Source of the DNA: Candidatus Epilinea brevis
GTDB lineage: Bacteria > Chloroflexota > Anaerolineae > Epilineales > Epilineaceae
DNA length: 64,000 nt
Assembly (NCBI GenBank): GCA_016710785.1
Contig: JADJUE010000006.1
Span: forward strand, 9,841-73,840
Direction of reading: 5' to 3'
A program made the position numbers and the translations under genes. Below the pieces are notes generated by a model. It made no database searches. It was not told the DNA's origin and was given only the letters and a program-made list of their open reading frames with translations. Positions 5,623 to 57,280 of the stretch are shown piece after piece. Within the stretch, counting starts at the first letter, position 1. Every line of letters begins with the position of its first letter.

Positions 5623-5880
5623 ATGCATGCTTGGCCGGTACATGATGCCAAGGCCCGTTTCAGCGAGTTCCTGGAGGCTTGCCTGACAGAAGGGCCGCAG
5701 ATGGTGACCAGGCGCGGCGCAGAGGCGGCGGTTTTGGTTCCGGTGCAGCAGTGGCGGCTCCTCCAGGCCGCGGCGCGGCCCTCGCTGAAGGAACTGCTGC
5801 TCGCCGATGGCGCTCGCGGTGACCTGCTCGTGCCCCAACGAGGCCAGGCCCGCCGCCGTGCCGTGGCCGCGTTCCGGTAA
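5623..5880 (+). CDS. Type II antitoxin, Phd/YefM-like (85 aa)
   Basis: N-terminal 'HDAKARFSEFLEACLTEGPQMVTRRGAEAAVLVPVQQW' resembles Phd/YefM antitoxins. Strong RBS. Immediately precedes and abuts the PIN-domain gene. Confidence 0.7.
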   Translation: MHAWPVHDAKARFSEFLEACLTEGPQMVTRRGAEAAVLVPVQQWRLLQAAARPSLKELLLADGARGDLLVPQRGQARRRAVAAFR

Positions 5881-5884
5881 CGCC

Positions 5885-6292
5885 GTGTTCCTGCTCGACA
5901 CGAACGTGGTTTCGGAGTTGCGCAAGCCCATGCCCCATGGTGCGGTTCTTGAATGGCTGCGGTCGGTGGATGACGCGAGCCTCTTCGTTTCCGTGGTGAC
6001 CTTGGCCGAGATCCAGGCGGGGATCGAAGTCACCAGGGAGCAGGACGCCACGAAGGCGGCCGAACTTGAGGCGTGGCTCGAGTTGGTGGCGGCAGCGTAC
6101 AACGTGCTGCCGATGGATGCCCTGACGTTCAGGACCTGGGCCCGGTTGATGCACCGGAAGTCCGACACGCTCTACGAGGACGCGATGATCGCGGCCACGG
6201 CGCGTGTCCACCACCTGACGGTGGTCACGCGGAACACCTCCGACTTCGCGACCTTCGATGTGGACCTGCTGAACCCCTTCGAGCAGCCATAG
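5885..6292 (+). CDS. vapC: VapC-family PIN-domain toxin (start GTG 5885 inferred; the supplied ORF extends to 5807, overlapping the antitoxin)
   Basis: 'VFLLDTNVVSELRK...' is the PIN N-terminal acidic motif. 'TLAEIQAGI' and 'VVTRNTSDF' fit conserved VapC blocks. Placed 4 nt after the antitoxin stop. Confidence 0.8.
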   Translation: MFLLDTNVVSELRKPMPHGAVLEWLRSVDDASLFVSVVTLAEIQAGIEVTREQDATKAAELEAWLELVAAAYNVLPMDALTFRTWARLMHRKSDTLYEDAMIAATARVHHLTVVTRNTSDFATFDVDLLNPFEQP

Positions 6293-7655: not shown

Positions 7656-7855
7656 GGGTCGACGTATTCGACGCCCTGGCCTGCGACCCCTGGCCGTACG
7701 TGATGGGCGCGGGCGGCACTATCCTGCAGCACGAGCGCTTTCAGGAGGGGCCTTCGATTCTGTGGCCAGTGGAACCGGATTGGAGCGGAGCGCAACTTAT
7801 CTGATATCCTCATTGATCTGGACGGCGAGTGCGTTCTGGGCGAGGCGATGATGCG

Positions 7856-10800
7856 ATGGCGTCGATGACGGGCAATCCGAAGTATCGCGACCCACGATCC
7901 GGGGCCTTGGCTCGTCTCGCGCAGGTCCGCTCCGTTTGCTTTGCCGCGCTCCTCCTCTCATTCCAGGCAATCGCGAGCGCGGATCGTCCCATGGCAGCCA
8001 CCCAGGCAGCTGATCTGGTGAGTCGCTGGCCATTGCCGGCGCTGGGGGTCAACGAACCCTTCGTCGCCGAGAGCCTCACCTACCTGCTCGACCACAGACT
8101 GCTGGTCGCGGATGAGGATCAGGAATCGATATGGCAGGTGGATCCTCGGACCGGGACCGTGCAGCCTTGGCTGGTCCGGCCTACGTTTGGCATGCGGCCA
8201 TTCCAGGTTCGATACGATCCGTCGAATCGTGTGGTGTATGTCGCCAGCCGCACAGGGTCTGAGGGCGTCGGCCAACTGCAATACCTGGTGCTGGACGAGG
8301 GCGGCGCCTATCTGGACCGCTGGACGCTGCCAGTCCGTGACGACATGTGGCAGTCCAACGGCTCAGCCAATCGGCTTTCCATCACGCGGGACGGCCTGCT
8401 CGCCTGGCTGATCAACCCGCCTCCCGGCGATCCCGGTGAGCCGAGGTCGCAGATCGCCACGGCGGACCGGCATGGCCAGCGGAGCTTTGGCACCCGGTGC
8501 CCGGAGAAGTACACGGCGCTCGCGGCCGGATCGAGCGGACAGTTCTTCCTTAAGACCGACCTTCCCAACCGTCAGGGGTTCGAGCCGGGCTACCGGATCG
8601 ATCGAGTCGACGGGAGCTGCCGGCAGCAGGCGGCCTTCTATCGGTACGATGGCACGCATCCGTATTGGTCCAGCAGGGTCGGGTTGGCGAGCTGGCCATC
8701 GCCCGATCATGTCTATATGACGACCGATCTCGGCATCGACGTTTTCAACCATGCGGGAGCGCGGCAGTACCGCACGTATGTGCCCGATCTGTGCCCGGAC
8801 TGCCAGATCCTCTCCGTGGCGCCCCGGCCTGACAATCATTTCGCCGTGCTCAGTGAGGACGACCTTTCGGGCCAGGGTGCCGTCCTCGCTCAGGCCATCC
8901 AGTTTGACGCCCAGGGTGGCCCGATGCTGCGAACCATCTTCCGCCCGGCTCGAACACCCGTGGATTGGGTGGCCGGACGCCTGACGGTGGACCACGCCGA
9001 CCGGGTTCATGTGCTCTACCCTGACTCGGATCGCCTCGTCACGTTCTCTCCGGCGGGGACGCTGGAACGCCAGGTTCCCGCTCCCAGTTGGGCCCTCGAC
9101 GTGGATGCAGGCGGCGGCACGCTGGCCATCAAGGGGTCATCGGGCGCGCAGGGCTCCGTGCGGTTGCTCGGCCCCGATGGCCGGCTGCTGTGGCATCGAA
9201 CCTGCGACTGCGACACGGCGGCGGGGGTGGCCGTCGGGAGCGGAGGCGTGATCGTGCCCAACGCAGCGCCGCCGCGGCTGCAGAGCTTCGAGCTCCTCAC
9301 AGGTACGGACTCAGGCGCGTGGTCGTCGCCCAGTGTCACGGGCGATGCATTGCCCCTGGATGTCACGACCGACGGGGACCAGACGCTGCTCCTGGACGGG
9401 GTTCAGGAGCGGATCCAGGCTATCGACGCCCGGGGCAAGGTGCGGTCGTATGTCGGCGTTCCCGCCGGCACGTTTCGAATCGACGTGGGACCGGGAGGCC
9501 GGCTTGGCGCCCTGACGCGCAGCGGCGGCGTCCATGTCCACGGTGTCGCGGGGTGGCAGGAAGTCGACCTGACGACAATCGCCGGCGCGGAGTCGCTGCA
9601 ACCACGCGATCTGGCCTGGACCCCAGCGGGCACTCTGACGATTCTCGATGCGGATGGCCCCTCGATCCTTCAGCTGAAGGTCGACGTCCCTCCTGCCGCG
9701 GATCCCACCCCGCCGCCCGATGTGGCGATCGGTGGAGGCTCGTGCCGCGTGACCGGCGACAAACAGGCATCACCGCGCCGCGTCTTCCTGGGCGAGCCCG
9801 TGGAGGTTCGACTCACCCTTGACATCGCGTGCCCCGCAAGCCCACGGCCGCCGCTGGACATCCTCATCCTGCTCGGGAGTGGGCTGACCGGAGGCAATGG
9901 GACCGAACCGCATGACTATCAGTCGGCTGCCTGGCAAGTGGCCGAGCGCGTCGTCGAGGGGTTGGACCTGAGTCGGGACCGGGTGGCCATCTATCTCCAC
10001 GGCTACGGGCAGCTCACCGGGTTCAGCGGCGAGAAGCGGCGACTTCATGACGCCATTGTGCGCTCCGGGCGGTACTTCAATCCCTATCTGCCGGCCGATG
10101 CCAACAGCTTCGACGGGCTGGGCTGGGCCTTCGATGTCATGGACGCGGGCGGGCGCCGCGGCGCGACGCGGCTGCTCGTGCAGATCGACAAGAGCCTCAT
10201 GATCACCCAGCGGGACGGAACGGACATCGCCGCGGAGTCCCGACGTCGCGACGTGCGAGTCATCCTGGTTTTTCGCCCTCTTGACGGTGGATTGCCGTCA
10301 GCGGAACGGCAACGACTTCGGTCCATGGTGGCTGCCGAAGGAGACGTCTTGAACCTCGATGACGTGCTATCGAGCGATGCTCTGCTCGAGCGGATCCTGC
10401 AATCGAGTCGGGCGGGCGTGGTGCGCGACGTGGAGGTTTGGGACGAGGCGGGCCCCGACATGACCCTGCTGCGCGGCTCTCCGGCACCCAGGGCGTGGGA
10501 GGGCCCGTCGAGCGTCCGCTGGCATGTCGATGGGCTCCCGACCGGAGGGATGACCTTGACGCTCTCGGTTCAGCCGCAACGTCTGGGAACCCTACCCACG
10601 AACCGACGCGCGCTTGCGGATTTCACGGATCCGGCCGGGGTGAGAAGGCGATTCGAGTTCCCGGTGCCTGTCGTCGAGGTTATCGCGCCGCCGACCGCGA
10701 CTCGGACCGCGCCGCCAATAGCCACCGCCACGCCGTCCTTTACGCCGCCGCCGACTCCAACACCCGCTCCCGTCTACCTCCCTCTCCTGCTGCGCGAGAT

Positions 10801-11407
10801 GTGCACGCCCGAGCAGCGCCGGGTGGATGTCGTGCTGGTCCTGGATGGCTCGCTATCCATGCTTGAGCCCGCCGACCTGGGAAGCGCTCAGACCAAGCTC
10901 GACGCTGCGCGCGAGGCCGCGCGCAGTTTTCTCGACGCGCTCCGGCTGGATCAAGGCGATCAAGCGGCGATCGTGGCATTCAACGCTCAGCCGGCACTGC
11001 TCACCGGCCTGACCGCCGATCGCTCCGCTCTGGACTCCGCCTTGGCGTCCATCACGTCGGCGCCGCAAACCTGTATCGTCTGCGGCATGGATACCGGGGC
11101 CTCCGAGCTAGCCAGCACGCGGCGCAGGCCGGCCAATGCCCCGGTGCTGATCCTGCTCACCGATGGCCGGTCCAACCCGCAGCCGGTGACCGAGGCGGTG
11201 GCGCGAGCCGCCGAGGCCAAGGCGGCGGGGATCCGCATCTACACGATCGGCTTGGGCGCCGACCTGGATGAGGCGGCGCTCAGGGAGATGGCTTCTGGGC
11301 CGAGCTTGTACTTCCAGGCCCCGACCGCGCAGGAGCTGGCTGGGATCTATCGAGAGATAGCGGTGGATATCCCATGTCCGGCCGGGGCGTTTTGGGGCGG
11401 AAGATGA
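7856..11407 (+). CDS. Large secreted protein (~1180 aa): signal peptide, beta-propeller-like repeat region, degenerate central vWA-like region, Pro/Thr linker, C-terminal vWA domain
   Basis: 'RSVCFAALLLSFQAIASA' is signal-like. C-terminal 'VDVVLVLDGSLSMLEP...LILLTDGRSNP...IRIYTIGLGADLDEAAL' is a canonical vWA domain with MIDAS DxSxS. Start ATG 7856 chosen; the ORF is open from 7829. Confidence 0.8.
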   Translation: MASMTGNPKYRDPRSGALARLAQVRSVCFAALLLSFQAIASADRPMAATQAADLVSRWPLPALGVNEPFVAESLTYLLDHRLLVADEDQESIWQVDPRTGTVQPWLVRPTFGMRPFQVRYDPSNRVVYVASRTGSEGVGQLQYLVLDEGGAYLDRWTLPVRDDMWQSNGSANRLSITRDGLLAWLINPPPGDPGEPRSQIATADRHGQRSFGTRCPEKYTALAAGSSGQFFLKTDLPNRQGFEPGYRIDRVDGSCRQQAAFYRYDGTHPYWSSRVGLASWPSPDHVYMTTDLGIDVFNHAGARQYRTYVPDLCPDCQILSVAPRPDNHFAVLSEDDLSGQGAVLAQAIQFDAQGGPMLRTIFRPARTPVDWVAGRLTVDHADRVHVLYPDSDRLVTFSPAGTLERQVPAPSWALDVDAGGGTLAIKGSSGAQGSVRLLGPDGRLLWHRTCDCDTAAGVAVGSGGVIVPNAAPPRLQSFELLTGTDSGAWSSPSVTGDALPLDVTTDGDQTLLLDGVQERIQAIDARGKVRSYVGVPAGTFRIDVGPGGRLGALTRSGGVHVHGVAGWQEVDLTTIAGAESLQPRDLAWTPAGTLTILDADGPSILQLKVDVPPAADPTPPPDVAIGGGSCRVTGDKQASPRRVFLGEPVEVRLTLDIACPASPRPPLDILILLGSGLTGGNGTEPHDYQSAAWQVAERVVEGLDLSRDRVAIYLHGYGQLTGFSGEKRRLHDAIVRSGRYFNPYLPADANSFDGLGWAFDVMDAGGRRGATRLLVQIDKSLMITQRDGTDIAAESRRRDVRVILVFRPLDGGLPSAERQRLRSMVAAEGDVLNLDDVLSSDALLERILQSSRAGVVRDVEVWDEAGPDMTLLRGSPAPRAWEGPSSVRWHVDGLPTGGMTLTLSVQPQRLGTLPTNRRALADFTDPAGVRRRFEFPVPVVEVIAPPTATRTAPPIATATPSFTPPPTPTPAPVYLPLLLREMCTPEQRRVDVVLVLDGSLSMLEPADLGSAQTKLDAAREAARSFLDALRLDQGDQAAIVAFNAQPALLTGLTADRSALDSALASITSAPQTCIVCGMDTGASELASTRRRPANAPVLILLTDGRSNPQPVTEAVARAAEAKAAGIRIYTIGLGADLDEAALREMASGPSLYFQAPTAQELAGIYREIAVDIPCPAGAFWGGR

Positions 11408-16961: not shown

Positions 16962-19945
16962 TCACTGCGCGCCAGCTCGCCCAAAGCGCGCCGTGAAGGT
17001 CGTGGCGGCCGCGTCGATGTTGGCGGTGAACTCGGGCTGCAGCGGATCAGCGATCGCGGCGTTGGGCGACCAGCCGGTGAAGGCAAATCCCGGCGCCGGC
17101 AGGGCGGTGACCGTCACCGGGTTCCCATCGAAGTAGATGCCCGTCCAGGGCATGCCGGCGGGGGTGACGGTGGAGATGCGCACGCGGCCCGCGCCGGGCG
17201 GCTCCACGCGCAAGGTGACGGCCACCGTCTTGGCGAAGCCGAAGTAGGCCAGGATGTGGGCTCGCTGGATGGCCGGCCGCTCGCGGTGGAAGCGCTTGAG
17301 GTCGGCCACCGCGCCCTGCCAGCGTTCCAGGTCGGGCGGGCAGTAGCTGCCGCCGCAGGCCTGGGCCCAGCGCAGGTGGTTGGCGCTGATCTCCGAGGCC
17401 ATGCGGCGGGCGTTGTCGTCGATGAGCGCGCCCATGTGGGCGGGGGTCCAGACGTCGTTCAGCAGGTCGGCGAAGCGGTTGACGAAGTCCCGCCGAAAGC
17501 CCTCGTTGCGCAGCAGGCCGTTGAACATGTCCGTGTAGACGTTGGGCTTGACCGGGCTGCGCAGGGCGAAGGCCAGGGAGTCGAAGTCGACCGCCGCCTC
17601 ACCGCCCGCGAGGGCCTGGGAGTAGGCGCAGTCCCAGAGCACGAAGCGCCAGCGGTTGTCGGCGGGCGGCCTGCCGCGGAAGGCCTGGATGTTGTTCAGC
17701 CACTGCGAGGAGTACCAGTCGCCGTTGGCGATGTAGATCTGGGTGGCCCAGTAGTCGACCCAGTTGTCCAGGTCGGCCCGCCGTCGGGCCTCGGCCATGT
17801 TCTCGGCCTGGCCGAGGTCCGCCGTACTCAGGAAGGTCGCCAGGTCGACGAAGTCCTGCTGGCTGCCGGCGTCGGCGAAAGTCGTGCCCACGTGGGTCTT
17901 GACGATGTCCACGTTGTCCGGATCGGCGCCGAAGTTGTCGCGTATGTAGTATTCGTTGAGCAGCTCCCGCGCGACGTAATGCCCCCAGTAGGCGCCGTTC
18001 ACGAACACCGCCACGTTCTGCGAGGCGGTGGCGGCGGCATGCGTGGGCAGGGCCATGCGGTTGGCGATGGTGTCGCGCATGCGGGCCGCCGTGGCGTCAT
18101 CGTCAGTGTTGCGCACCCGGAAACCGTGCAGCTTGCCCAAGGCGGGCTTGTCCTCGTTGAACAGCACATTCGGCACGTCGCCCTTCGCCCCGAAGTCGTC
18201 CTCGAAGCTGAACTGCAGCGACTTCTGGGCGAAAGCCTTCGAGAAGTTGCCGACCACCCGCAGCGCGGCCCGCTCGCTGAAGCGCTGCTGCCTGGCGGCG
18301 TCGAAGTAGGCTACCTCGCCCGGCACCTTGAGGCCCGACTCGAAGTTGTCGTAGATGGCTGGCCCGCCCCCCGCGCCATCGGCGAAGAGATCGCCCGGCG
18401 CGGCCACGACGCTGACCACCGGCAGCGCGGTCGGCTCGTCGATGAAATAGGCGGCCGTCACCACCTCGCTCGGCAGCTTGCCGGCTTCCAGGGCCAGGGC
18501 CCGCAGCACCTTGCTGCGCGTCAGGGCAATGGGCGTGCGGTAGCGGGTGGCGGAGGCGTCGGGCAGCCGGCCGTCCAGGGTGTAGCGCAGGTCGTCGCCC
18601 CCCAGGGCTACTGCCTGCCGGCCGGCGTAGAAGCCGGGCGCCAGGCCCAAGGTGGGGGCCTTGGCATAGCCGTCGTAGCAGGTGCCGCTGTTGGGCGCAC
18701 CGGGTGAAGGGCTGTCGCTCAGGCACCAGGCCTCGCCGATCCGGGCCAGCACATGCCCGCGTTGCAGCTCGGGGGGGATGGCCGCCGCGTCGGCCGCCAG
18801 GCCGCCAGGGGCCGTGAGCCGCAGGGTCTCGCCGACCTTGAGGCGGAAGTTGGCGTGCAGGGTGCCGGCAGCGGCGCCCGGCGGCCGGAACCAGGGCGGA
18901 TTGGGGTCGAACTGCGAGCCCGCGTCGGCCAGTCCGACATGGAGGAAGGGCCTGAGCGTGAGGTCGGACGAGTCGGCCCCGATGTTGTGGACCTCGATGG
19001 CCAGGACATTCCGCCCGTCCACGAGCAGCTCCGTCACCCGTCGGCGATCGACGGGAAAAGCCGGCGGCACCTGGTCCTGGTAGAGCACGGCCTCATGTTC
19101 GACAGCCAGCTCGTCCCAGGCCGGCGGCGTGCCGGCGAGGCCCTCGCGGGCGATCTCGACGCCGTTGAGGTAGGCCACGAAGCCGTCGTCGAAATCCATG
19201 TGCAGCAGCAGGTCGGTGACCTTGCCCTTATCGCGCACCGTGAACTCGCCGCGGGCGTAGACGCTGAGCGTGGCTTCGGGGACCTCCGACCGATCGTCGC
19301 CGTCGCCGTAGCCGATGCCGCCCGGCCCTTCCTCCCAGCCGGTGGCGTCGAAGCCCGGCTGGCGCCAATCCACCGGGATATCCGCCCGCCCCATGGTGAA
19401 GCGCCACCCGCTGCCATCCTGCACCGCCGTCTCCCAATGGTCCGTGGGCGCCCCCGCGCCGCCGTCCGGGCTCGCCGGCCGATCCTTGCCCGAGGCGAAG
19501 ACGACGCGCCGTTCGTCCGGGGCCAAGGTCACGGCCGGCAGGCGCCAGCGCTCCGGCTGCCGCGGATCGTCGCTGAGGGCGTAGCCGCTCAGGCCGAGGG
19601 CCGTGGCGCCTGTGTTGTGGATCTCGACCCAGTCCGACGCCTCGCCATCCTCGTCGAGGATCTCGCCACCGGTGGGCGCGATCTCCGACAGGCGCAGGGG
19701 GCCGGGCGGCGGCGTCGCGGGTGGGGCGGGCGCTGCCGTCGGGGAGCCGTCGGGGACTCAGGCGGCGGCGGATTCGTCGGTGGCGGTGGCGTGTCCCGCC
19801 CGGCGGCGCGTCCCAGCCAGGGCAGGTAGACCGCTTGGCCGCCGGCCTCGGCTTGCGCCGGCGCGGGCGGCAGGGTCCCAGGGCCGACGGCCAGCCCGAG
19901 CAGGGCGAGCAGAGGGGGCAGCCGGCGGCGGGTTGTCGGGGTCAA
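16962..19945 (-). pseudogene. CotH-family (spore-coat-protein-H-like kinase) secreted protein with lamin-tail-like and C-terminal beta-sandwich domains, disrupted by a frameshift from an 11-bp tandem duplication at 19735-19756 (alternatively a sequencing artefact)
   Basis: Body ORF 16962-19532 contains CotH signature blocks ('VFVNGAYWGHYVARELLNEYYIRDNFG', 'WVDYWATQIYIANGDWYS', 'RWRFVLWDCAYS'). Its frame stays open upstream to 19757 encoding a PT linker plus 'LRLSEIAPTGGEILDEDGEASDWVEIHN'. Upstream ORF 19589-19990 in a different frame encodes an RBS-preceded TTG start and Tat/Sec-like signal peptide 'TTRRRLPPLLALLGLAVG' plus 'AVYLPWLGR', then becomes Arg-rich nonsense. The junction is the perfect repeat GCCGTCGGGGA GCCGTCGGGGA. 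Confidence 0.6.
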
Positions 19946-20044
19946 GGAGCCTCCTGGGATGTCTCTGGATCGACGAGGGCGAAGGCGCACCTCAAGCCTC
20001 TCGGAGATCTTCTGCAGGTGACTGGGCTGAAGTGGCCTATTTCT

Positions 20045-20977
20045 TTATGGGGTTGCTTCAGGAGTTGGGTATACCCAGGTGGCACCAGGTGTTGGTCGAG
20101 ATCCTGGGCTCTCATTACAGAGGTTTGCTGCGTTTATCGGATACCGCTCAAGATACTGGGAGCCAAGCTCTGGTATTGCCTCGGCAGAAGCAAACACTTC
20201 CTCGATGGTCTTTCCATCTCCTGCCACAGGTAGCAGTGCGTCGAACTGCCCGGTCTCTTCAAAAGTCACTGCCATGTAGGTCGTACGCAACGGCACAGCA
20301 TCTTCCGTGGCGTCCTTCGGTGGAGATAACTTTCTAAGGTCGAAGCGTGAACGATGTGTGAGCTGCTCACTGTTCTCAAAGAGCACAAGCCACACTACAG
20401 GAGAGTTATCGTTCGACGGGTCGCCGGCAGGCTGCTCTTCTGCCCATCGATGCGCCACGGCCAATGATGTCCGTTTGACGACATTTCGAACCCACGAGGT
20501 CGTCCCGGTTAGCATCTTGGCATGCCAAATTGCTTCATCTGGAATGCACAGCATCCGTCTCCTCAATTGAGAGCGAAACTCCGACAGCTCATCGGGGTCT
20601 GGAATGGGAGTTTCCGGTGGCATATCAAAATACATCACTCGTGTGCCGATCGGGTTGACACCCATCGACCCTGGTGTAGATGTACCATTCGCTCCAGGGA
20701 TAAGGGGAGTTGCTGATGCGACAACTGACTGTCCAGGAACACTCGCTGAATCGTGCTGATTCAGGATAACCACTGCGGCAAGGCCAGCAACCAGACCGGC
20801 TACTGTGATAGCGAGCCAAATCGTGTCTTGGTGCGTCTTACGTGTCACTGGGAGCCTCCATGATGCTCTACAGGGTTGCAGCTCACGGGTAGACACTTTG
20901 CCCGTGGGTAGAGCAGGGGCCACCATGGCTCCATGGGCGTTTCGGGCATGGTGGTCCGCTTGGTGATGGCGGTGCAT
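20045..20977 (-). CDS. Hypothetical membrane-anchored protein (one TM helix) in a lower-GC patch
   Basis: ORF with hydrophobic segment 'IWLAITVAGLVAGLAAVVIL'. No recognisable domain. Atypical composition. Confidence 0.45.
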   Translation of the reverse strand: MHRHHQADHHARNAHGAMVAPALPTGKVSTRELQPCRASWRLPVTRKTHQDTIWLAITVAGLVAGLAAVVILNQHDSASVPGQSVVASATPLIPGANGTSTPGSMGVNPIGTRVMYFDMPPETPIPDPDELSEFRSQLRRRMLCIPDEAIWHAKMLTGTTSWVRNVVKRTSLAVAHRWAEEQPAGDPSNDNSPVVWLVLFENSEQLTHRSRFDLRKLSPPKDATEDAVPLRTTYMAVTFEETGQFDALLPVAGDGKTIEEVFASAEAIPELGSQYLERYPINAANLCNESPGSRPTPGATWVYPTPEATP

Positions 20978-20999
20978 GAACTGGCATGTGGTGGCTGCC

Positions 21000-21097
21000 G
21001 GGCAACGTCAAATGATAGGTGCCGAAGTTGCCGATCAGCGACTCGACGCCGATCTGATCGGCGAGCGAGCGATGGGGGAGAGGTGTCTACCTATGAG
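21000..21097 (-). repeat. Degenerate, truncated third copy (inverted orientation) of the ~125-nt 3' element, downstream of the minus-strand YfbK-like vWA gene
   Basis: Minus strand reads CTCATAGGTAGACACCTCTCC...GATCAGATCGGCGTCGAGTCGCTG, matching the first ~60 nt of copies 1 and 2. Confidence 0.45.
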
Positions 21098-21333
21098 GAC
21101 CAGTCCGATTGACGTGGTGGCTGGCTCTCCTTGGTCAGGATCACGAGATGGGGGATCTGCTATCACCACCGGGCAAGGATAGACCCGCCCCATGAGGCCA
21201 ACAACCGCTTTCCGTGACGGCACAACCGTCAGGGTGGTCTTCATCGACTGTCCTCGGGTAGGATGCGATACGGGGGCTCCTCAACTGCGATAATCGGAAG
21301 GGTATTGCGTCCCGCTTCCAGGATCTCGACGCA

Positions 21334-23373
21334 TCAGGGCGCGATTGCCGCGGCCTTGGCCGCCAGGTCTACCAAGGCCAGGAATCCCGCGCGGTGTCCG
21401 CCCGGATCCTCTCCCAGGGCGCTGGCCGCCAGGCTGCGCAGGTCGGCGAAGCTGGCGGCGCCGCGATGTGGTGAGCCGCGCAGCAACATGCCGAACTCCG
21501 CCACGGCGGCCGCGAAACGCAGGTTGTCCGAGGTGGCGGCAAAGGGCTGGACATCCAGTCCCAGCGCCACATTGAGACGCTTGCTCTCGGCGGCGTCCGG
21601 GAGCTTGTAGCGCAGCTTCACGGTGAGCAGTTCGCCTTCGAAGGCCGGATCGGCGCCGACGTAGCGTAGCGGATCGATGGCCGGCGTCGGGCTGGCCGAG
21701 CCGGACGGGGTGGGTGTAGCGCTGGCCTGCTCGAGCGGCGTCAGGGTGGGCGGAAGCTGCGGCGTGGCCAGGGCCGTGGGAACCGCCCGGCCCGCCGGCA
21801 CCAGCTCGTAGAGCGCGCTGATGCGATGACCCGCGCCGATCTCGCCCCCGTCCTTGCTGTCGTCGTTGAAATCGGCGGCCGCGAGCAGGCGGTTCTCATA
21901 GCCCAGCAGCCGATAGCCGGCCACCTTGCTGGGGTTGAACTCCAATTGCAGCTTGACGTCCTTGGCCACTGTCACCAGGGTGCCCCCGATCTCTTCGACG
22001 AGGACCTTGCGCGCTTCGGCCATGCTGTCGATGTAGGCGTAATGGCCGTTGCCCCGATCGGCCAGGCGCTCCAAGGTCTCGTCCTTGAGGTTCCCCATGC
22101 CGAAGCCGAGTACCGTCAGGAAGACACCGCTCTTGGCCTTGTCGCGGATCAGGGTCTCCAGGTTTGCCGGATCGGTGACGCCCACGTTGAAGTCGCCGTC
22201 GGTGGCCAGGATGACCCGGTTGGCGCCGCCGGGGATGAAGCTGGCCAATGCCGTCTCGTAGGCCAGGGCGATGCCCTCGCTGCCATGGGTGCTGCCGCCC
22301 GCTTCCAGTTGGTCGATGGCCGCCAGGATCCGCGGTCGCTCCAGGCCGGACACCGAAGGCAGGACTAGGCCCGAGCTGCCGGCGTACACCACCATCGCCA
22401 CACGGTCGGCCTCGCCGAGCTGCTCGGTCAGCAGCCGCAGGGCCTGCTTGACCAAGGGCAGCTTGTTGGCATCCTGCATCGATCCGGAGACATCGATGAG
22501 GAAGACGAGGTTGGAGAGCGGACGGTGGTCGAAGGCAATGGGCGCCGTCGTCAGGTTCACCCGCAGCAGGCGATGCTCCGGCTGCCAGGGCGCGTCGCTG
22601 AGCTCTAGGTTCACGCAGGGCGCCGCCTCCGGCAGGGGGTCCTGGTAGGGGAAGTAGTTGATCAGCTCCTCGATCCTGACGGCATCGATCGGCGGCCGCT
22701 GTCCGGCGGTCAGGAAGCGGCGGACGTTGCTGTACGACGCGCTGTCGACGTCGATGGCGAAGGTCGACAGCGGCGCGTCGGCGACCGCCTGGAAGGGGTT
22801 GTCCCAGAGCGAGCCGTAGGCCTCTTCTGCGCCCGTGTCGGTGGCCGCCGCCTGGGCCAGGCCGCCCGTCGCCGGCAGGTGGGGGGCGATCTGCAAGGGC
22901 ATGACCGGCGCCCCGGCATTGGCGTAGCGGGCCGGTGGCAGCAGCGGCTCCGGCGGAGCGCCGCCGCCGGTGCGCGGCGGCTGGGCCGCGGGCGTCGGAT
23001 GGAGGCCGGCCGCCGCCCGGCCTCCGCCTGCAGGACGGGGGACGGGGCTGCTGTTGACCTGCTTCCAGAGGGCGGTCGCCGTAATGCCCGCTTCCGGGCG
23101 CGGCGCGGTGGAGGTCTTGGTGGACGTGCTGCTGGGCGCCGCGGAGGGCGTGTCGACGGAGGGCGTGTCGACGGAGGGCGTGCCGGCGGGGGGCGTGCCG
23201 GCGGGGGGCGCCGTCGGCACGTTCCGCGAGGCGCAGGCATTGAGGCCCAAGGACAGCAGCAGCCCCGACGCGGTGATCAGCCAAGGTCGCGGTCGCGGCA
23301 GGGACGGGCGGGGCGAAGTCGATGGCCGCGGAAGGGCCTGGGGTGCGGCGACGCATGCGGGCGAGGGAATCAT
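21334..23373 (-). CDS. YfbK-like vWA-domain lipoprotein (vWA followed by DUF3520-type C-terminal domain)
   Basis: 'LSLGLNAC' lipobox. 'NLVFLIDVSGSMQDANKLPLVKQAL...ILATDGDFNVG' is vWA with MIDAS. 'LQLEFNPSKVAGYRLLGYENR' region typical of YfbK-family proteins. Confidence 0.8.
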   Translation of the reverse strand: MIPSPACVAAPQALPRPSTSPRPSLPRPRPWLITASGLLLSLGLNACASRNVPTAPPAGTPPAGTPSVDTPSVDTPSAAPSSTSTKTSTAPRPEAGITATALWKQVNSSPVPRPAGGGRAAAGLHPTPAAQPPRTGGGAPPEPLLPPARYANAGAPVMPLQIAPHLPATGGLAQAAATDTGAEEAYGSLWDNPFQAVADAPLSTFAIDVDSASYSNVRRFLTAGQRPPIDAVRIEELINYFPYQDPLPEAAPCVNLELSDAPWQPEHRLLRVNLTTAPIAFDHRPLSNLVFLIDVSGSMQDANKLPLVKQALRLLTEQLGEADRVAMVVYAGSSGLVLPSVSGLERPRILAAIDQLEAGGSTHGSEGIALAYETALASFIPGGANRVILATDGDFNVGVTDPANLETLIRDKAKSGVFLTVLGFGMGNLKDETLERLADRGNGHYAYIDSMAEARKVLVEEIGGTLVTVAKDVKLQLEFNPSKVAGYRLLGYENRLLAAADFNDDSKDGGEIGAGHRISALYELVPAGRAVPTALATPQLPPTLTPLEQASATPTPSGSASPTPAIDPLRYVGADPAFEGELLTVKLRYKLPDAAESKRLNVALGLDVQPFAATSDNLRFAAAVAEFGMLLRGSPHRGAASFADLRSLAASALGEDPGGHRAGFLALVDLAAKAAAIAP

Positions 23374-23511
23374 CGTACTTGCTCCTCTACGGGATCAGGC
23401 CGGTGACACGCGTCCCCCTTCGGGATGGCTGTCGGGCAATTACAGCAAGAAGCGTGCCGTTCTACAGGCGCGGTCACGGCGGGCGCACTCGCAGCACCGG
23501 CCGCTCTCGGC

Positions 23512-24417
23512 TCAGGCCCGGCAACCGCAGCTCCCGCCGGACCTCGCGGCCGGGCCGGTCGCGGGATCCGCGATCCTATCCGCCCCCGCACCGCAGCAAC
23601 CCGCCTTCGCCTCCGGCGCGCAGCAGTCGGCCTGCGCGGCGGGCTCGCAGCAGGACGCCGGCTTGGCCGCGCGGATGATGGCCGCGCCCGCATGCTCGTG
23701 GACGCGGTGCGTCTCCGTGATCGACACGCCGACGAATCCGGCGTCCGCGAGCGCTTGCTCGAACTGGCGGCGGGTCAAGGCGCCGGCGATGCAGCCGGTC
23801 CACTGCTGCATGTCCGCGCGGGTCGCGTCGTCCATGTGCTCGTCGGCGATCACGTCGCTGACCGCCAGCCGCCCGCCGGGCCGCAGCACCCGCGCCGCTT
23901 CGGCGAAGACGCGCGGCTTGTCGGCCGAGAGGTTGATCACGCAGTTGGAGATCACCACGTCCACCGAGCGGTCGGCCAAGGGGATCTGCTCGATGTAGCC
24001 CTTGTGGAAGGCAACGTTGTCCAGCCCGGCCGTCGCGGCGTTGGCGCGGGCCAGGCCCAGCATCTCGTCGGTCATGTCCAGGCCGATGGCCCGACCGGTG
24101 GGCCCCACGCGGCGGGCGGCGATCAGCACGTCGCCGCCGGCGCCCGAGCCCAGGTCCAGCACCACCTCGCCCAAGTGCAGCTCGGCGACCGCCGTCGGCA
24201 CGCCGCAGCCCAGCGAGGCGGCGAGCGCCGGCTCGTCCTCGCCGGCGTAGAGCGAGGCGCCGAACACCTCCACGCCGTCCCGGTCGGTGGTCAGGCCCGG
24301 CGCGCAGCAGCTGCCGGAGCCCGCGTCCATGTTCCCGCAGCCGCTCGCGGACGTGGCCGCATCCGCGTAGCGCCGGCGCACCTGCTCGCGCACGGTGTCG
24401 ACTTCGTCGAAAACCAT
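23512..24417 (-). CDS. arsM: Arsenite S-adenosylmethionine methyltransferase with Cys-rich C-terminal tail
   Basis: 'VLDLGSGAGGDVLIAARRVGPTGRAIGLDMTDEML' SAM-binding motif. Conserved Cys pairs ('SGCGNMDAGSGSCCAP', 'CVINL'). C-terminal 'CCEPAAQADCCAPEAKAGCCGAG'. ATG 24417 overlaps the arsR stop (TGATG). Confidence 0.85.
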   Translation of the reverse strand: MVFDEVDTVREQVRRRYADAATSASGCGNMDAGSGSCCAPGLTTDRDGVEVFGASLYAGEDEPALAASLGCGVPTAVAELHLGEVVLDLGSGAGGDVLIAARRVGPTGRAIGLDMTDEMLGLARANAATAGLDNVAFHKGYIEQIPLADRSVDVVISNCVINLSADKPRVFAEAARVLRPGGRLAVSDVIADEHMDDATRADMQQWTGCIAGALTRRQFEQALADAGFVGVSITETHRVHEHAGAAIIRAAKPASCCEPAAQADCCAPEAKAGCCGAGADRIADPATGPAARSGGSCGCRA

Positions 24418-51046: not shown

Positions 51047-54000
51047 TCACCGCGTGGTGGTGGCCGGGACGAAGGACCAGATCAACTGGTAGGGAGCCTC
51101 GACCTCGCGGCCCTGAGCCCAGACGCGGATCCAGTAGCGACCGGCCTCCTGCCGCGGCAGCAGGATGCTCTCGTCCATCGTCGCGCGGTTGCGGCTGGCC
51201 GCCAGGTAGGCCGGGTTGTTGGGGTCCACGTAGATGAAGAGGTCGTAGTCGCCCTTGCCCTTGCGTGGAACCACCAGATCGACGCGCAGGTTGCCGCGCT
51301 GCCGGGGGGTCACCAGGTACCAATCATCGTCGTCCGTGCCGCTGCCCGCGGCCCAGAGCCGTCCGTTATAGCCCATGTCCGGGCAGAGAATCCGATCCTC
51401 GCGCTCCAGGTTGGGCGCGTCGGGCTCTGGATCATCGATGCCGGTCCAAGGCGGTTCGCAGAGCACATACTTGTCGATGACGATGAGCGGCAGGTAGGCC
51501 GGGGCCGGGGTCCGCGTCGGCGTGGGGGTGTAGGTGGGCGTGGCTGTGGGGGTAGGCGTGTCGGTGGGCGTCGCCGTAGGCGTATCGGTCGGCGTCGGGG
51601 TAGGGGTGTCGGTGGGCGTTGCCGTCGGCGTCGGAGTGGGCGTCGGGGTGTCCGTCGGCGGCGGCAGCTGCGGGGTCACGGTAGGCCCCGAGTTCTTGTC
51701 CGCCCGGAAGCTCCAGGCGTAGCTGGTCCCGTCGACCGTCAGGCTGACCGCGTAGCTGCGCCCGAATTTCAGCGGCTCGATGGGGATCAGGACCACCGCG
51801 TCGCGGGTGGCCAGGATGTCGCGGCCCAAGGCCTGCAACCCCGAATCCGGGTTGACATAGGTGTCCTCGGTGAACACGCAGTGGGCCGCGGCGCGGTCGT
51901 TGGCCGTCAAGGAAGCGGCCGTCACCTGCGGTCGGCGGGAGCCGTCACCCAGCAGCAGGACCACCGCCGGACCGCTGGCTGCGCCGGCGGAGGCCCCCGG
52001 GCAGCCGGTCAAGGGGTTGGGGCTGGCGCTGCCGGCGGTCCACAGGTAGCGGACCACCTCCACCAGCTGGTTGGGCGCCGGGTAGCGAACGGGATAGCGG
52101 GCACCCAGAGGCAGCTGTGCCTGGCGGCCACGCTCCACGTCCAGGACGGCGGCGAAGGGCCGCGCCGCATCGGTCTGGGCGAAGCTGCCGAAGCCCACCG
52201 CCGTCAGCCGCGGGTCCATCAGCCGCACCACGTCGAAGGCGTTGGCCGTCCATTCATCGATCGCCGATTCGGGTGACCGGTCGGCCTTCGTGTCGGCCAG
52301 CACCAGCGCACCCCGCCCCGCCGCCGCGCCCTCCTCGCTGAAGTAGGGGCTGGCGGGATCCTCGTCACGCACGACCAGGCCGCTGAGAACCACGTAGCGC
52401 GCATGGGCGGCGGCGCCGGCGCTCCAAGGCGCGGCGTCGTTGAGCCCGAACAGGCCCGCCAGGCTGCGGAAGACGTTGAGCCGCTCCTGCCAGGCCGGGC
52501 CGGTATCCGCCGGAGCCGCCGGCGCCAGGGGCCGATCGGGCGCGCCGCCGACCGTGCCACTGTCGAAACGGACGGTCCAGATAGGCGCGGCGAGGCCGCG
52601 GACGCGCCGCGCGCCAGCCAGCCGCGCGGCCCCGGGAGCCTGCCAATGGCTGTCCGGCTTGGGCGGGGCGGGCTTGGGCGTGGGCGGCTCTTCCTTGGGC
52701 TCCTCCGTAGGCGGCTCGGGCTTGGGCTCCTGGGTGGGCGGCTCCGGCGGGCGGGGCTTTGCCGGCTTGTCATCCTCCGGGTCCGGCGGCGGGGCCGTCG
52801 GCGCCTCGGTGGGGAGTTCCGCCGTCGGCGGCGCCAGGGAAGGAACGACCGTGGGGATGGCCGGGCGGAAGAAGCGCGTGGGCGTCGCCGGGTTCGGCCC
52901 CAGGCTCACGGCGATCTGTACCAGCTGGCCCGGCTCCATCGTCTCCCCGCTCGCCGGGTTCTGGCTGATGACGACGCTGGGGTCGACGGTGCCGGAGTAC
53001 TGGCGGACCAGGGAGAGCTGCAGATCGTTGGCCCGGATGACCTGCTCGGCGTCCGACTGCGACAGGCCGACCACGTTGGGTACGGTGACCCGGGCCGGCG
53101 TCGTGGGGGTGGGGCTGGCCGCCGAGGTGGCGGTAGGGCTGGCCGGGGCGATGACCGCGGCCACGGGCGCCAAGGTGGGCGGCGGCGCGGCGGCCACCTG
53201 CGTCGGCGCCGCGCGCTCTGCCGCTGAGCGCGAAAGGGCGCGGGCCATCGTGGGCCAGAAGACCAGCAGGCCGGCCAAGGTCAGCACCGTGCCGGCGCCG
53301 ATGGCCACGGTCGGCCACGAGACCTGCGGCATCTCGAAGCTGGGCATGACGGGCGGGCTGACCGGCGTGGCCACGGGCAGCTCGTAGGGGGCCACGACCA
53401 TGGCCGTCGCGTCATCGTCGGCTCCGCCGCCGCGGGCAAGGGCGATGAGCCGCGCCGCGGCCGCCACGGCAGGCTGGCTCACCACCAACGGGCCGATCTC
53501 CGCTTCGCGCAGGGCCTGGAAACACCCGTCGGTGGTCAGCACGATGCGATCGCCGCCGCCCAGGGGGATGGGGTCGCTGCAGACTGGCCGAGGCAAGGGC
53601 CCGCGGCCCAGCAGGGCCGCCGCGTCGCTGGGATCGTCGGTCAGGCGATAGGCCTGCCCGGCCCGCACCAGATGAACTCGCGCCCGCTGGCCGACATGCC
53701 CCACGATCAGGGTGTCGTTGCACAGGACGGTTGCCGCGGCGCAGACACCGCCGGCGCTCCCTTCCTGCTCCGCCGCCTCGCGCAGCGCCCGGTCAGCGGC
53801 GCCGAAGGCCAGCGCCAACGCGTCCGGGCGACCGTGATCGCGCGCCGCCGCGTAGTAGGCGCGGACGATCTGACGCACGGTTCGCTCCGCCGCGCGGGCC
53901 CCGGCCTCACCGGCGGCCCGGCCGTCCGCAACCACGTAGATGCTGCCGGCCAGTTCGGCGAGCTGGGGGTCGTCCGGCCGGTAGAAGGCCAGCTTGTCGC

Positions 54001-54061
54001 GGTTGGTGCCGGTGACGGGGCCGCCTTCGGTGGCATAGCCCAGGGTAGGATCGCTTGCCAT
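51047..54061 (-). CDS. Receptor-like PP2C-family Ser/Thr phosphatase: cytoplasmic PP2C domain, TM helix, extracellular PASTA domain, Pro-rich linker, unknown domain, PT linker, C-terminal PPC (pre-peptidase C-terminal) domain
   Basis: 'SIYVVADGRAAGEAG...GGVCAAATV...DRIVLTTDG' are PP2C metal-binding blocks. 'VTVPNVVGLSQSDAEQVIRANDLQL...ISQNPASGETMEPGQLVQIAVSLG' is PASTA. C-terminal 'DDDDWYLV...GDYDLFIY' is PPC-like. Confidence 0.8.
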   Translation of the reverse strand: MASDPTLGYATEGGPVTGTNRDKLAFYRPDDPQLAELAGSIYVVADGRAAGEAGARAAERTVRQIVRAYYAAARDHGRPDALALAFGAADRALREAAEQEGSAGGVCAAATVLCNDTLIVGHVGQRARVHLVRAGQAYRLTDDPSDAAALLGRGPLPRPVCSDPIPLGGGDRIVLTTDGCFQALREAEIGPLVVSQPAVAAAARLIALARGGGADDDATAMVVAPYELPVATPVSPPVMPSFEMPQVSWPTVAIGAGTVLTLAGLLVFWPTMARALSRSAAERAAPTQVAAAPPPTLAPVAAVIAPASPTATSAASPTPTTPARVTVPNVVGLSQSDAEQVIRANDLQLSLVRQYSGTVDPSVVISQNPASGETMEPGQLVQIAVSLGPNPATPTRFFRPAIPTVVPSLAPPTAELPTEAPTAPPPDPEDDKPAKPRPPEPPTQEPKPEPPTEEPKEEPPTPKPAPPKPDSHWQAPGAARLAGARRVRGLAAPIWTVRFDSGTVGGAPDRPLAPAAPADTGPAWQERLNVFRSLAGLFGLNDAAPWSAGAAAHARYVVLSGLVVRDEDPASPYFSEEGAAAGRGALVLADTKADRSPESAIDEWTANAFDVVRLMDPRLTAVGFGSFAQTDAARPFAAVLDVERGRQAQLPLGARYPVRYPAPNQLVEVVRYLWTAGSASPNPLTGCPGASAGAASGPAVVLLLGDGSRRPQVTAASLTANDRAAAHCVFTEDTYVNPDSGLQALGRDILATRDAVVLIPIEPLKFGRSYAVSLTVDGTSYAWSFRADKNSGPTVTPQLPPPTDTPTPTPTPTATPTDTPTPTPTDTPTATPTDTPTPTATPTYTPTPTRTPAPAYLPLIVIDKYVLCEPPWTGIDDPEPDAPNLEREDRILCPDMGYNGRLWAAGSGTDDDDWYLVTPRQRGNLRVDLVVPRKGKGDYDLFIYVDPNNPAYLAASRNRATMDESILLPRQEAGRYWIRVWAQGREVEAPYQLIWSFVPATTTR

Positions 54062-54374
54062 GCTCAAGGGGTGTCGGTTCCTTGGATCGGGCCGGCGCCT
54101 GGCCCCGTATGACGGTGCCGGCGCACGGCGGCAGGCCTCGCGGGCCTGGGGGATGTGGCGTGCTGTCAGTGTAGATGATAGCCGCTTGCCGCGTCAAGGG
54201 TTGCGCTGCGCCCACGGACGGCTATGATAAACCACTGGCGGGAGGGCGTTCTGGCTTCTCCTGCGTCCATAACAAACCGTCGCGGAGTCTTGGCGACCGG
54301 CGGGGCGGCTTTCGAGGAGGCGCCCCGCATTGATCGGAACCGTCAACGGCTCCTGGGTGGAGGAGAAGCCCCAC

Positions 54375-54650: not shown

Positions 54651-55102
54651 CCTCACCCTGGGGAGAATCGCTTCCCAGGGGGTTGGTGGTCCTGGTCTTC
54701 CTGTCGTTCGTTGTGGGTCTGGTAGCCTGTCAGCGCCCCCGCCCCACCGCGAGCGGCAGTGGCGATGGCCGCGTCCTGACCGTCCCGGCCATCGTCGTCG
54801 CTGCGCCCGCCGCCGGGGCGGTGGTGGCCTCGCCGCTGACGGTGGCCGGAACCGCATCGCTGGACTCGGCCACCCAGACCCTGGTGGGCATGGTGTTCAG
54901 CGTGGATGAAACGGGAGAGCACTGGCGTGGCAACGCGAGCATCGCCGTGCAGCCCGATGGGCGCTTCGCGGGGAACATCGTCTACACCGCCGCCACCGCC
55001 GGCCCGGGCATCGTCCAACTCGCGGTGATCGATGGGGCGGCCGGTACCGTGATGGCCCGCCAGCGGGTGGACGTCCAGCTGGCTGCCGCGCCGGCTCCCT
55101 GA
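54647..55102 (+). CDS. Lipoprotein with Ig-like (Gmad2-type) domain
   Basis: '[16 protein letters not shown]' lipobox. ATGA overlap with infA. Weak domain recall. Confidence 0.55.
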
Positions 55103-56574: not shown

Positions 56575-56602
56575 CGGGACCGCCACCACCGTGCGAGGGG
56601 TG

Positions 56603-57280
56603 ATGATGACAAGCGCCACATGGCGACGGACCGAACGCGGATTGGGTTGGCTGGCGCTCCTGCTGAGCGCGATGACCCTCGTCGCCGGCCTCTGGTTCTC
56701 ACCGTCGGAGCGGGTGCTCGGCCGCATGGTCGGCATCCTGTATGTGCATGCCGGCGCCGCCTGGACGACCTATCTGGCCGGCGGCGTCACCGCTATCGCG
56801 GCCCTGGCCTATCTGCGCAGCCGATCGGAGGCCTGGGACGGACTGGCCGTGGCCGGCGGCGAGGCCGGACTCTGGCTGGGCACCGTCACCTTGCTCACCG
56901 GCTCCTTGTGGGCCCGCGGCGCGCAGGGCTGGTGGTGGCGTTGGGACGACCCGCGGCTGGTCCTGACCCTCTTCCTCTGGTTTCTGTATGCCGGCTACCT
57001 GACCTTGCGGCAGTTCACCGAGGGCGAGCGCCGTGCCCGTCTGTCCGCCGTGCTGGCCCTGCTGGGCCTGCCGGTGATGGTGCTCAACCACTTCGCCCTC
57101 ACCCTGTGGCAGCCGCGATTCCATCCCGCGCCGGTCATCGGTCGTCCGGGCGGACCGGCCGCCAGCCCGCAGTTCCTGTGGCTCCTGGGCCTCTCCATGC
57201 TGGCCTACACCGTGCTCCTGGCCTGGATGCTGCTGGGTCGTGCGCGCCTCGAATCCCTGCGCAACGCGCTGGAGGCCTGA
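56603..57280 (+). CDS. ccmC: Heme exporter protein C
   Basis: WWD motif 'GSLWARGAQGWWWRWDDPRL'. 6 TM helices. Confidence 0.8.
   Translation: MMTSATWRRTERGLGWLALLLSAMTLVAGLWFSPSERVLGRMVGILYVHAGAAWTTYLAGGVTAIAALAYLRSRSEAWDGLAVAGGEAGLWLGTVTLLTGSLWARGAQGWWWRWDDPRLVLTLFLWFLYAGYLTLRQFTEGERRARLSAVLALLGLPVMVLNHFALTLWQPRFHPAPVIGRPGGPAASPQFLWLLGLSMLAYTVLLAWMLLGRARLESLRNALEA

Follow-up and report, generated by a model that had tools for sequence, protein, structure and literature searches.

A frame-breaking 11-nt duplication in a predicted secreted CotH-family gene: mixed-strain consensus artefact or recent null allele?

In the 64-kb stretch of DNA that we analyzed (the window), a gene on the minus strand that encodes a CotH-family protein is broken at positions 19735-19756, where two perfect copies of an 11-mer abut and throw the reading frame out of register. 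This raises the question of whether the break is a genuine lesion in a living population, a switch that turns the gene on and off, or an error of the assembly, all three of which had been put forward in a sequence-only reading of the locus. The evidence from the window and from its relatives shows the break to be an ordinary lesion that involves no new mechanism, and that is either an error in the consensus or a null allele that has only just arisen.

One gene, two reading frames

The sequence confirms that a perfect 11-bp duplication at 19735-19756 (GCCGTCGGGGA twice, with GCCGTCGGGGAGCCGTCGGGGA as the plus-strand readout, and TCCCCGACGGC twice on the coding minus strand) splits this gene, as had been claimed. 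The 11-nt periodicity ends at both edges of this interval, which is the only perfect tandem duplication with an 11-nt unit anywhere in the window (first-order Markov simulations of the 64 kb predict 0.07 loci of this kind). The remaining perfect tandem repeats in the window with a unit of at least 9 nt have units of 9, 12 or 15 nt, all multiples of three.

Our reading of the open reading frames on either side of the duplication agrees with the earlier description of them. The 5′ fragment (19589-19945, minus strand) comprises a TTG start at 19945, a signal peptide, the motif AVYLPWLGR and the start of a Pro/Thr linker, and then runs out of frame into an Arg-rich tail that is terminated by a stop at 19589-19591. 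The TTG start lies 4 nt downstream of a ribosome-binding site, AGGAGG (19950-19955, minus strand), and is conserved in relatives, with the AGGAGG kept in L046, L048 and L054-L057. The body frame (16962-19757, minus strand) opens directly after a TGA at 19758-19760, is offset by 2 from the 5′ frame, and overlaps it by about 170 nt (19589-19757). Removal of one 11-mer yields a single open reading frame, of 990 codons from the TTG at 19945 or 1005 codons from a GTG at 19990, and thereby bears out the proposal that such a deletion restores one gene of about 995 codons. The repaired junction peptide, PPPPESPTAAPAPPATPPPGPLRL, is letter for letter that of the intact 990-aa orthologues P0122 and P0124 (approximately 98-99% DNA identity), the N-termini of intact orthologues match the first 67 residues of the 5′ fragment, and all relatives are in frame, which supports the pair of 11-mers as the frameshift site of one gene.

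The deposited coding sequence is shorter than this gene. It spans 16962-19532 (856 aa, MBK8540449.1, recorded as a “CotH kinase family protein” of an “Ardenticatenia bacterium” MAG on a contig of 270,786 bp), and begins at an internal GTG within a segment resembling the lamin-tail domain (LTD), so that the annotated start at 19532 cuts away most of that segment. Since the database record annotates the 856-aa coding sequence only, the locus could be read as two separate genes, one for a small secreted peptide and one for a cytoplasmic CotH protein; with its start inside the LTD match, an Arg-rich out-of-frame tail on the 5′ open reading frame, and both parts fused in every relative, this two-gene reading is refuted by the orthologue alignment and retains virtually no probability. 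Exact look-up in the protein collection found neither the 118-aa nor the 133-aa version of the 5′ fragment, nor the repaired 990-aa protein. A search of the window for further split genes, by GC3 and overlap of open reading frames together with Pfam, found none.

Programmed ribosomal frameshifting (-1 or +2) would be another way to join the two frames, with the full-length protein still made, and a shift anywhere in the overlap of about 170 nt would suffice. However, the upstream frame has no heptamer of the type X XXY YYZ across the overlap, and, with the protein encoded in a single frame in every orthologue, there is no conserved recoding signal. We therefore consider this reading effectively refuted and its probability negligible.

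A predicted secreted protein of widespread architecture

The repaired protein is laid out as a signal peptide, a YLPW motif, a Pro/Thr linker, LTD, CHB_HEX_C, CotH and a B-repeat. The predicted signal peptide (residues 1-32; 19850-19945, minus strand) consists of MTPTTRRR, a hydrophobic core and APAQA|E, and its residues have the layout of a common n-h-c signal ending in AQA|E. Its RR pair is conserved in orthologues, and T-R-R-R-L-P is a partial match to the Tat consensus S/T-R-R-x-F-L-K. The twin-arginine-like signal proposed earlier has no support from the models of the Tat signal in Pfam and NCBIfam, which gave no match, even at E ≤ 10 for NCBIfam on the N-terminal peptides, in a search where weak matches are removed by the HMMER filters. 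Directly after the signal peptide stands AVYLPWLGR (19808-19834, minus strand), which is conserved as [VIL][YFL]LPWL[GA][RQ] in orthologues P0001-P0008. Related YLPL motifs follow Pro/Thr linkers elsewhere in the window.

All of the domains lie on the minus strand. The assignment to the CotH family was upheld by a match to PF08757 at 17271-18263 (97.5 bits, with the cut-off at 23.8; E = 1.4e-27) that covers profile positions 1-320 of 322, i.e., the CotH domain is matched end to end. The lamin-tail-like segment reported earlier is present at 19464-19709, but its score against PF00932 is 31.3 bits, under the cut-off of 34.3; the Pfam domains precomputed for the orthologues include LTD. Between these lies a CHB_HEX_C_1/Fn3_assoc domain (18456-18641; PF13290, E = 5.7e-9; PF13287, E = 6.3e-9), and the C-terminus carries a Flg_new_2 domain resembling the InlB B-repeat (16977-17141; PF18998, E = 3.1e-6). 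A phmmer search against PDB sequences gave no match at E ≤ 0.01.

CotH of Bacillus is an atypical kinase of the spore coat, and the CotH proteins of Mucorales are invasins. Compared with the CotH family, the protein encoded in the window has in addition a predicted N-terminal signal peptide and a Pro/Thr linker. The architecture of LTD, CHB_HEX_C, CotH and B-repeat is shared with hundreds of proteins in the databases; the secreted LTD-CotH proteins of Bacteroidota differ in having a T9SS C-terminal tail (PF18962), which the window protein lacks. The suggestion that an exported CotH protein is of interest in itself does not hold, as proteins with LTD, CotH and CHB_HEX_C and secretion signals number in the hundreds, and the secreted LTD-CotH architecture is widespread.

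Alleles of the linker repeat in relatives

We write X for TCCCCGACGGC and S for TCCGCCTCAG, which together form a 21-nt unit, with each extra unit adding 7 aa in frame. Among relatives, the allele with a single X (990 aa) is present in L054-L057, L063 and L046, and the allele X-S-X (997 or 998 aa) in L053, L058-L062 and L064, as well as in L052 with one mismatch in the second X. The arrangement X-X exceeds the one-copy allele by 11 nt, falls short of the two-copy allele by 10 nt, and is found in the window only. Out-of-frame alleles at the linker number zero among about 14 close assemblies and 8 more distant orthologues. Judged from these sequences, the linker site is a natural 21-nt copy-number polymorphism with one or two in-frame copies. 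It resembles the VNTR-like, in-frame polymorphisms in Pro/Thr linkers of secreted proteins, in that a near-perfect 21-nt duplication ((G/T)CCGCCTCAG plus X, 7 aa) is present or absent among strains, and an older, diverged copy of the 21-nt repeat is present in orthologues P0002 and P0003 (85-87% identical). The window allele differs from these in that it is not a whole-unit step, and therefore the frame is broken.

The one-copy L057 and the two-copy L060 and L061 share one haplotype background. From 400 nt upstream to 800 nt downstream of the start, their only differences from the window, apart from the indel, are at gene positions 54 and 86 and at either 173 or 187. Aligned with the window over 1,813 nt, L060 has 9 mismatches and one gap, of 10 nt. 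Both types of allele also occur in runs of one project, PRJEB11413. A pattern scan of JGI metagenomes that allowed a spacer of 0-25 nt returned one contig, with two copies, and no second X-X, and a scan of genome contigs with the repaired protein returned relatives at 50% identity or less only. A search with the frameshifted 118-aa peptide gave nothing at E ≤ 1e-3 and missed even those orthologues with 67 identical N-terminal residues, making it uninformative.

The flanking SNPs (AAT or ATT at gene position 173, and GAG or CAG at 187) occur in all combinations among relatives, and for this reason a gain of 11 nt by the one-copy allele is not separable by SNPs from a loss of 10 nt by the two-copy allele. 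The earlier account of the duplication as slippage is therefore one valid reading, but a two-copy allele minus its 10-nt spacer fits equally well. There is no flanking microhomology for the 11-nt duplication, and for the 10-nt deletion only 3 nt (TCC).

These alleles bear directly on the proposal that the repeat is a phase-variation (contingency) switch that toggles a secreted CotH protein between ON and OFF by copy-number slippage. Linker length does vary between strains, and the product is secreted or surface-exposed, the usual class of contingency gene; the locus also resembles the simple-sequence-repeat contingency loci of pathogens, in that a repeat-linked change of length alters the reading frame early in a gene whose product is secreted. 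However, all of the natural variation is a 21-nt in-frame step, the 11-mer is present only twice with no multi-copy tract, none of the approximately 22 relatives is out of frame, and toggling between X, X-X and X-S-X would require different, non-equivalent events. Contingency loci, in contrast, have long tracts of short units and ON and OFF alleles in population samples. The option of a phase-variation-like switch is thus not borne out, and we regard it as very improbable. Marginally better, but still highly doubtful, is the idea that the 21-nt repeat is a hot spot that also yields out-of-frame “half-step” alleles such as X-X, so that at any time part of the population would fail to export CotH. 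If true, a secreted function would be subject to a crude form of contingency, or to a polymorphism that includes cheaters, in an abundant Chloroflexota lineage of activated sludge (MiDAS midas_g_119, SBR1031 lineage). Even jointly, a switch or recoding is very improbable.

Consensus error or young null allele

Two readings of X-X carry most of the weight. The first, to which we assign a probability of roughly 0.55, is that X-X is an artefact of a consensus built from mixed strains, and the earlier option of an assembly error thus becomes the leading one, on the allele structure, the occurrence of both natural alleles on one background, the restriction of X-X to the window, the lack of decay and another error-like patch nearby. 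The window appears to be part of a population bin from activated sludge, with about 10-17x coverage in Nanopore reads and about 10x in Illumina reads, a provenance that we infer from accessions. Singleton et al. 2021 (PMC8012365) are the source of the sister bin JADJNM (L052), report bins of the same species at 9.9x/12.4x and 11x/17x coverage, used a pipeline of CANU, Racon, medaka twice and then Racon with Illumina reads, and caution that the MAGs represent “chimeric population bins” and suffer from platform errors. That the window comes from this data set is deduced from the accession series, and its placement in bin JADJUE from accession arithmetic, which counts against this reading.

We infer that the artefact would arise during polishing. 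In a pile of reads that mixes one-copy and two-copy strains, the 21-nt gap could be placed over X1+S, over S+X2 or between these, at equal score; S would be deleted in every placement, and each X in only some of the reads. Since all placements remove S while only some remove each X, a column-wise consensus would drop S and retain both copies of X, giving exactly X-X. This case would resemble the consensus errors known at strain-variable indels in long-read MAGs, in that a lone out-of-frame indel lies in an otherwise intact, conserved gene, at a repeat where co-occurring strains differ by an indel, and in a bin of apparently low Nanopore coverage with a deletion-biased patch close by. It would differ in the size of the indel, as the usual Nanopore errors are homopolymer indels of 1-2 nt, not 10-11 nt, and in its clean flanks. 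Alignments of the window with L054 (9,747 bp) and L056 (8,833 bp) are free of gaps, and those with the Illumina contigs L059-L062 are free of 1-nt indels, i.e., the assembly is otherwise clean. In addition, a final Racon round with Illumina reads should have restored one of the true alleles if short reads spanned X-X, and repeats are also genuine mutational hot spots.

The second anomaly confined to the window lies 3 kb away at 22615-22624, where five deletions of 1-4 nt (net -9) turn EAGGSPVRVNLE into EAAPCVNLE within a conserved vWF_A domain. The EAGGSPVRVNLE peptide is kept even in L047 and L048, which are 90% identical. This patch has the deletion-biased pattern of an unpolished long-read consensus.

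The second reading, which we regard as a possible but more tentative explanation, is that X-X really exists as an allele that lost its function very recently, i.e., a fresh pseudogene of the secreted CotH protein. It could have formed from the two-copy allele, by slippage between the TCC that starts S and the TCC that starts the second X with loss of the 10 nt of S, or from the one-copy allele by an 11-nt tandem duplication. The linker site is demonstrably length-unstable in nature, a two-copy allele is known from a background that is nearly identical (L060), the flanks are free of random indel noise, and the last polishing step used Illumina reads. As in recent frameshift pseudogenes that arise by slippage at a short direct repeat, the frame is broken relative to orthologues and the lesion lies exactly at the direct repeat, with no secondary lesions: the repaired gene has no additional stops or indels, as would be expected if the mutation is very young. 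Its private codon changes are 1 synonymous and 0 nonsynonymous in 990 codons; in favour of the artefact, the window therefore looks like known variants merged into a consensus. Purifying selection acts on the gene (dN/dS of 0.19-0.29 against orthologues), with no sign of the relaxed selection of a pseudogene. Also weighing against a null allele are the absence of X-X from every close assembly, more distant orthologue and metagenome scan described above, the weak or absent microhomology, and the error-like patch close by.

If X-X is real, translation from the TTG at 19945 would end at 19589 and give a 118-aa secreted nonsense peptide, with at best a cytoplasmic 856-aa fragment that lacks the signal peptide and most of the LTD, and the locus would be one more young pseudogene. 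Neither outcome raises a new biological question. Under the preferred reading of a mixed-strain consensus artefact, the window shows how a repeat that varies between strains can end up as an out-of-frame hybrid in a population bin assembled from long reads. What follows is mainly of practical value: MBK8540449.1 (856 aa) represents a 990-aa secreted protein with its N-terminus cut short.

A tandem duplication within one gene

The + strand at window 19735-19756 reads GCCGTCGGGGAGCCGTCGGGGA, so that the coding (minus) strand carries two tandem copies of the 11-nt unit X (TCCCCGACGGC), confirming the perfect 11-bp pair described by the sequence-only reading; the periodicity extends not one base further on either flank. 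Nowhere else in the 64-kb window is an 11-nt unit perfectly duplicated in tandem, and first-order Markov simulations put the chance expectation at 0.07 such loci per 64 kb; the remaining perfect tandem repeats with units of at least 9 nt have units of 9, 12 or 15 nt, which keep the frame. An 8-nt unit (GGCCGCCA, 2.25 copies) at 18792-18809, inside the CotH body, leaves the frame unbroken, and is not meaningful: the window has 4 such 8-nt tandems, against a chance expectation of about 2.3. The frame geometry proposed earlier also holds: on the minus strand, a 5′ frame begins at a TTG at 19945, preceded by AGGAGG, and terminates at a stop codon at 19589, the body frame, offset by 2, is open from 19757 to a stop at 16962, and removal of one X rejoins them as a single 990-codon ORF counted from the TTG.

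The split is a lesion in one gene, since its orthologues read through in a single ORF, which rules out two separate genes. The 856-aa body ORF corresponds to the record MBK8540449.1 (named “CotH kinase family protein [Ardenticatenia bacterium]”; MAG-derived, 270,786-bp contig), whose 90% cluster contains 990-aa proteins. The junction in the orthologous proteins P0122 and P0124 is PPPPESPTAAPAPPATPPPGPLRL, identical to that of the window gene repaired by deletion of one X, with Q replacing E in P0126-P0128 and P0130, and the more distant orthologues (63-93% identity) are single ORFs in 8 of 8 cases. Programmed ribosomal frameshifting that joins the two frames is excluded, since our search for an X XXY YYZ heptamer in the frame overlap found none and the two-frame layout is not conserved in relatives. 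Compared with the related contigs L054, L056 and L057, the 11 nt are the only indel inside the gene; the repaired gene has one synonymous and no nonsynonymous private codon change, with dN/dS of 0.19-0.29 against orthologues.

Repeat-length polymorphism at the junction

Our survey of the DNA of 15 related contigs demonstrated that the site is a natural repeat-length polymorphism with two in-frame alleles, X and X-S-X, where S is the 10-nt spacer TCCGCCTCAG. The single X that the sequence-only reading suggested looking for in relatives is present in L054-L057, L063 and L046 ([G/C]AG-X-AGCGCCC; 990 or 993 aa). GAG-X-S-X-AGCGCCC, encoding 997 or 998 aa, is carried by L053, L058-L062, L064 and L052, the second X of L052 having one mismatch. 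In this 2-copy allele a 21-nt stretch (7 aa) is tandemly duplicated almost perfectly, and the proteins P0002 and P0003 contain an older, diverged version of the duplication. The window's X-X, out of frame and found in none of the other loci fetched, differs from the 1-copy allele by +11 nt and from the 2-copy allele by -10 nt. A metagenome scan allowing any spacer of 0-25 nt between X copies returned one 2-copy contig and nothing else.

An on/off phase-variation switch, as suggested earlier, is very improbable: the unit is present in two copies only, the natural length step stays in frame, and 0 of approximately 22 relatives are out of frame. L057 (1-copy) and L060/L061 (2-copy) share essentially one haplotype background, with the indel and gene positions 54, 86 and 173 (or 187) as their sole differences from the window between -400 and +800 nt relative to the start codon, and runs with both allele types occur in one activated-sludge project (PRJEB11413), so that +11 and -10 origins of X-X are not separable by flanking SNPs.

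Origin of the window allele

We favor a consensus artefact as the source of X-X, at a probability of roughly 55%. In a pile of mixed X and X-S-X reads, the 21-nt gap would score equally over the first X and S, over S and the second X, or between; every placement would remove S, each X would be removed in some placements only, and a column-wise consensus would give X-X exactly. We infer that such ambiguous gaps may have generated the window allele. No microhomology flanks the 11-nt duplication, and a 10-nt deletion would have TCC only, which likewise points to an artefact. A second window-private patch, at 22615-22624 on the same contig and 3 kb from X-X, also counts toward consensus error: EAGGSPVRVNLE is changed to EAAPCVNLE by five small deletions (1-4 nt each; net -9 nt, frame kept) inside the vWF_A (PF12450) match of a vWA/YfbK-like gene (21334-23394, minus strand). 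All relatives, L047 and L048 at 90% identity among them, keep the longer form. The patch probably represents an error left over in the long-read consensus, and its deletion bias, the signature of unpolished long-read consensus, indicates that polishing with short reads did not work locally in this G+C-rich stretch.

A genuine, very recent null allele is a lesser but substantial possibility, favored by clean flanks (0 gaps in 9,747 bp versus L054 and in 8,833 bp versus L056), by the lack of 1-nt indels versus Illumina contigs, and by a sister-bin pipeline that closed with Illumina polishing. On the artefact side, this sister bin, JADJNM (L052; EsbW_18-Q3-R4-48_MAXAC.090), was assembled with CANU, Racon, medaka twice, and Racon with Illumina reads (Singleton et al. 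2021, PMC8012365); the accession series suggests that the window is part of the same data set, and accession arithmetic would place it in bin JADJUE. Also in favor of an artefact, Illumina/Nanopore coverage of bins of this species, MiDAS midas_s_119 (SBR1031), in that study was 9.9x/12.4x and 11x/17x, with polymorphic-site rates of 0.9-1.6%, and its authors describe their MAGs as chimeric population bins affected by platform errors (PMC8012365).

Encoded protein and neighbourhood

The repaired protein contains full-length CotH (PF08757; 97.5 bits, cut-off 23.8), CHB_HEX_C_1/Fn3_assoc (PF13290/PF13287; E=5.7e-9/6.3e-9) and Flg_new_2 B-repeat (PF18998; E=3.1e-6) matches in Pfam, and an LTD match (PF00932) of 31.3 bits, under its 34.3 cut-off. 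The N-terminus (MTPTTRRR, a hydrophobic core, APAQA|E) reads as a predicted standard signal peptide, with AVYLPWLGR and then a Pro/Thr linker behind it. The earlier “Tat-like” label is possible but unsupported; Tat models gave no match to the N-terminus, the RR pair nonetheless being conserved in orthologues. The LTD-CotH-CHB_HEX_C architecture is not unusual: our search returned 918 homologues at E<=1e-10, most of the best matches share it, and those from Bacteroidota commonly have a T9SS tail. A [VA]YLP[LW][LI] motif, covered by no Pfam or NCBIfam model, recurs beside Pro/Thr-rich linkers at 19808-19834 (-), 10772 (+) and 51499 (-), and may be a sorting signal or a domain-start strand. The CotH copy lies directly behind the signal peptide and is kept in orthologues down to 63% identity; the other two separate a PT linker from a C-terminal VWA domain (ORF 7829-11407) or from a C-terminal domain of ~140 aa (PASTA-domain protein, ORF 51047-54067).

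Between the CotH gene and a methyltransferase gene, a 3.6-kb segment (19988-23580) includes the vWA/YfbK_C gene together with a 293/310-aa ORF of lower G+C (~0.55; 20045-20977) with no family match. Its presence in L057, L059-L064, L047 and L048 and absence from L052, L054 and L056 indicate a strain-variable insertion or deletion adjoining the CotH gene. Toxin-antitoxin genes occur in the variable surroundings of the CotH locus in several strains (PIN-domain ORF, window 5789-6292, +; PIN/PhdYeFM, L047 5703-6448; Fic/MazE, L048 11081-11745). L052 (JADJNM010000004.1) encodes CBASS-type defence genes (SAVED-domain and DncV-like nucleotidyltransferase; 20201-22994) ~7-10 kb past the CotH gene 3′ end, and its alignment to the window stops short of them. 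Elsewhere, 54910-56574 (+) is a single stop-to-stop ORF with ABC_tran (CcmA-like) and CcmB matches, possibly a CcmA-CcmB fusion or else a pair of overlapping genes, and is followed by a Cytochrom_C_asm ORF (56513-57280).

If X-X is not an artefact, the strain would produce a 118-aa peptide with a nonsense tail, and the 856-aa remainder would be missing both the signal peptide and the greater part of the LTD. Whether artefact or real, the feature is ordinary; in practice, it is useful as a warning that MBK8540449.1 is a truncated model of a 990-aa secreted LTD-CotH protein.
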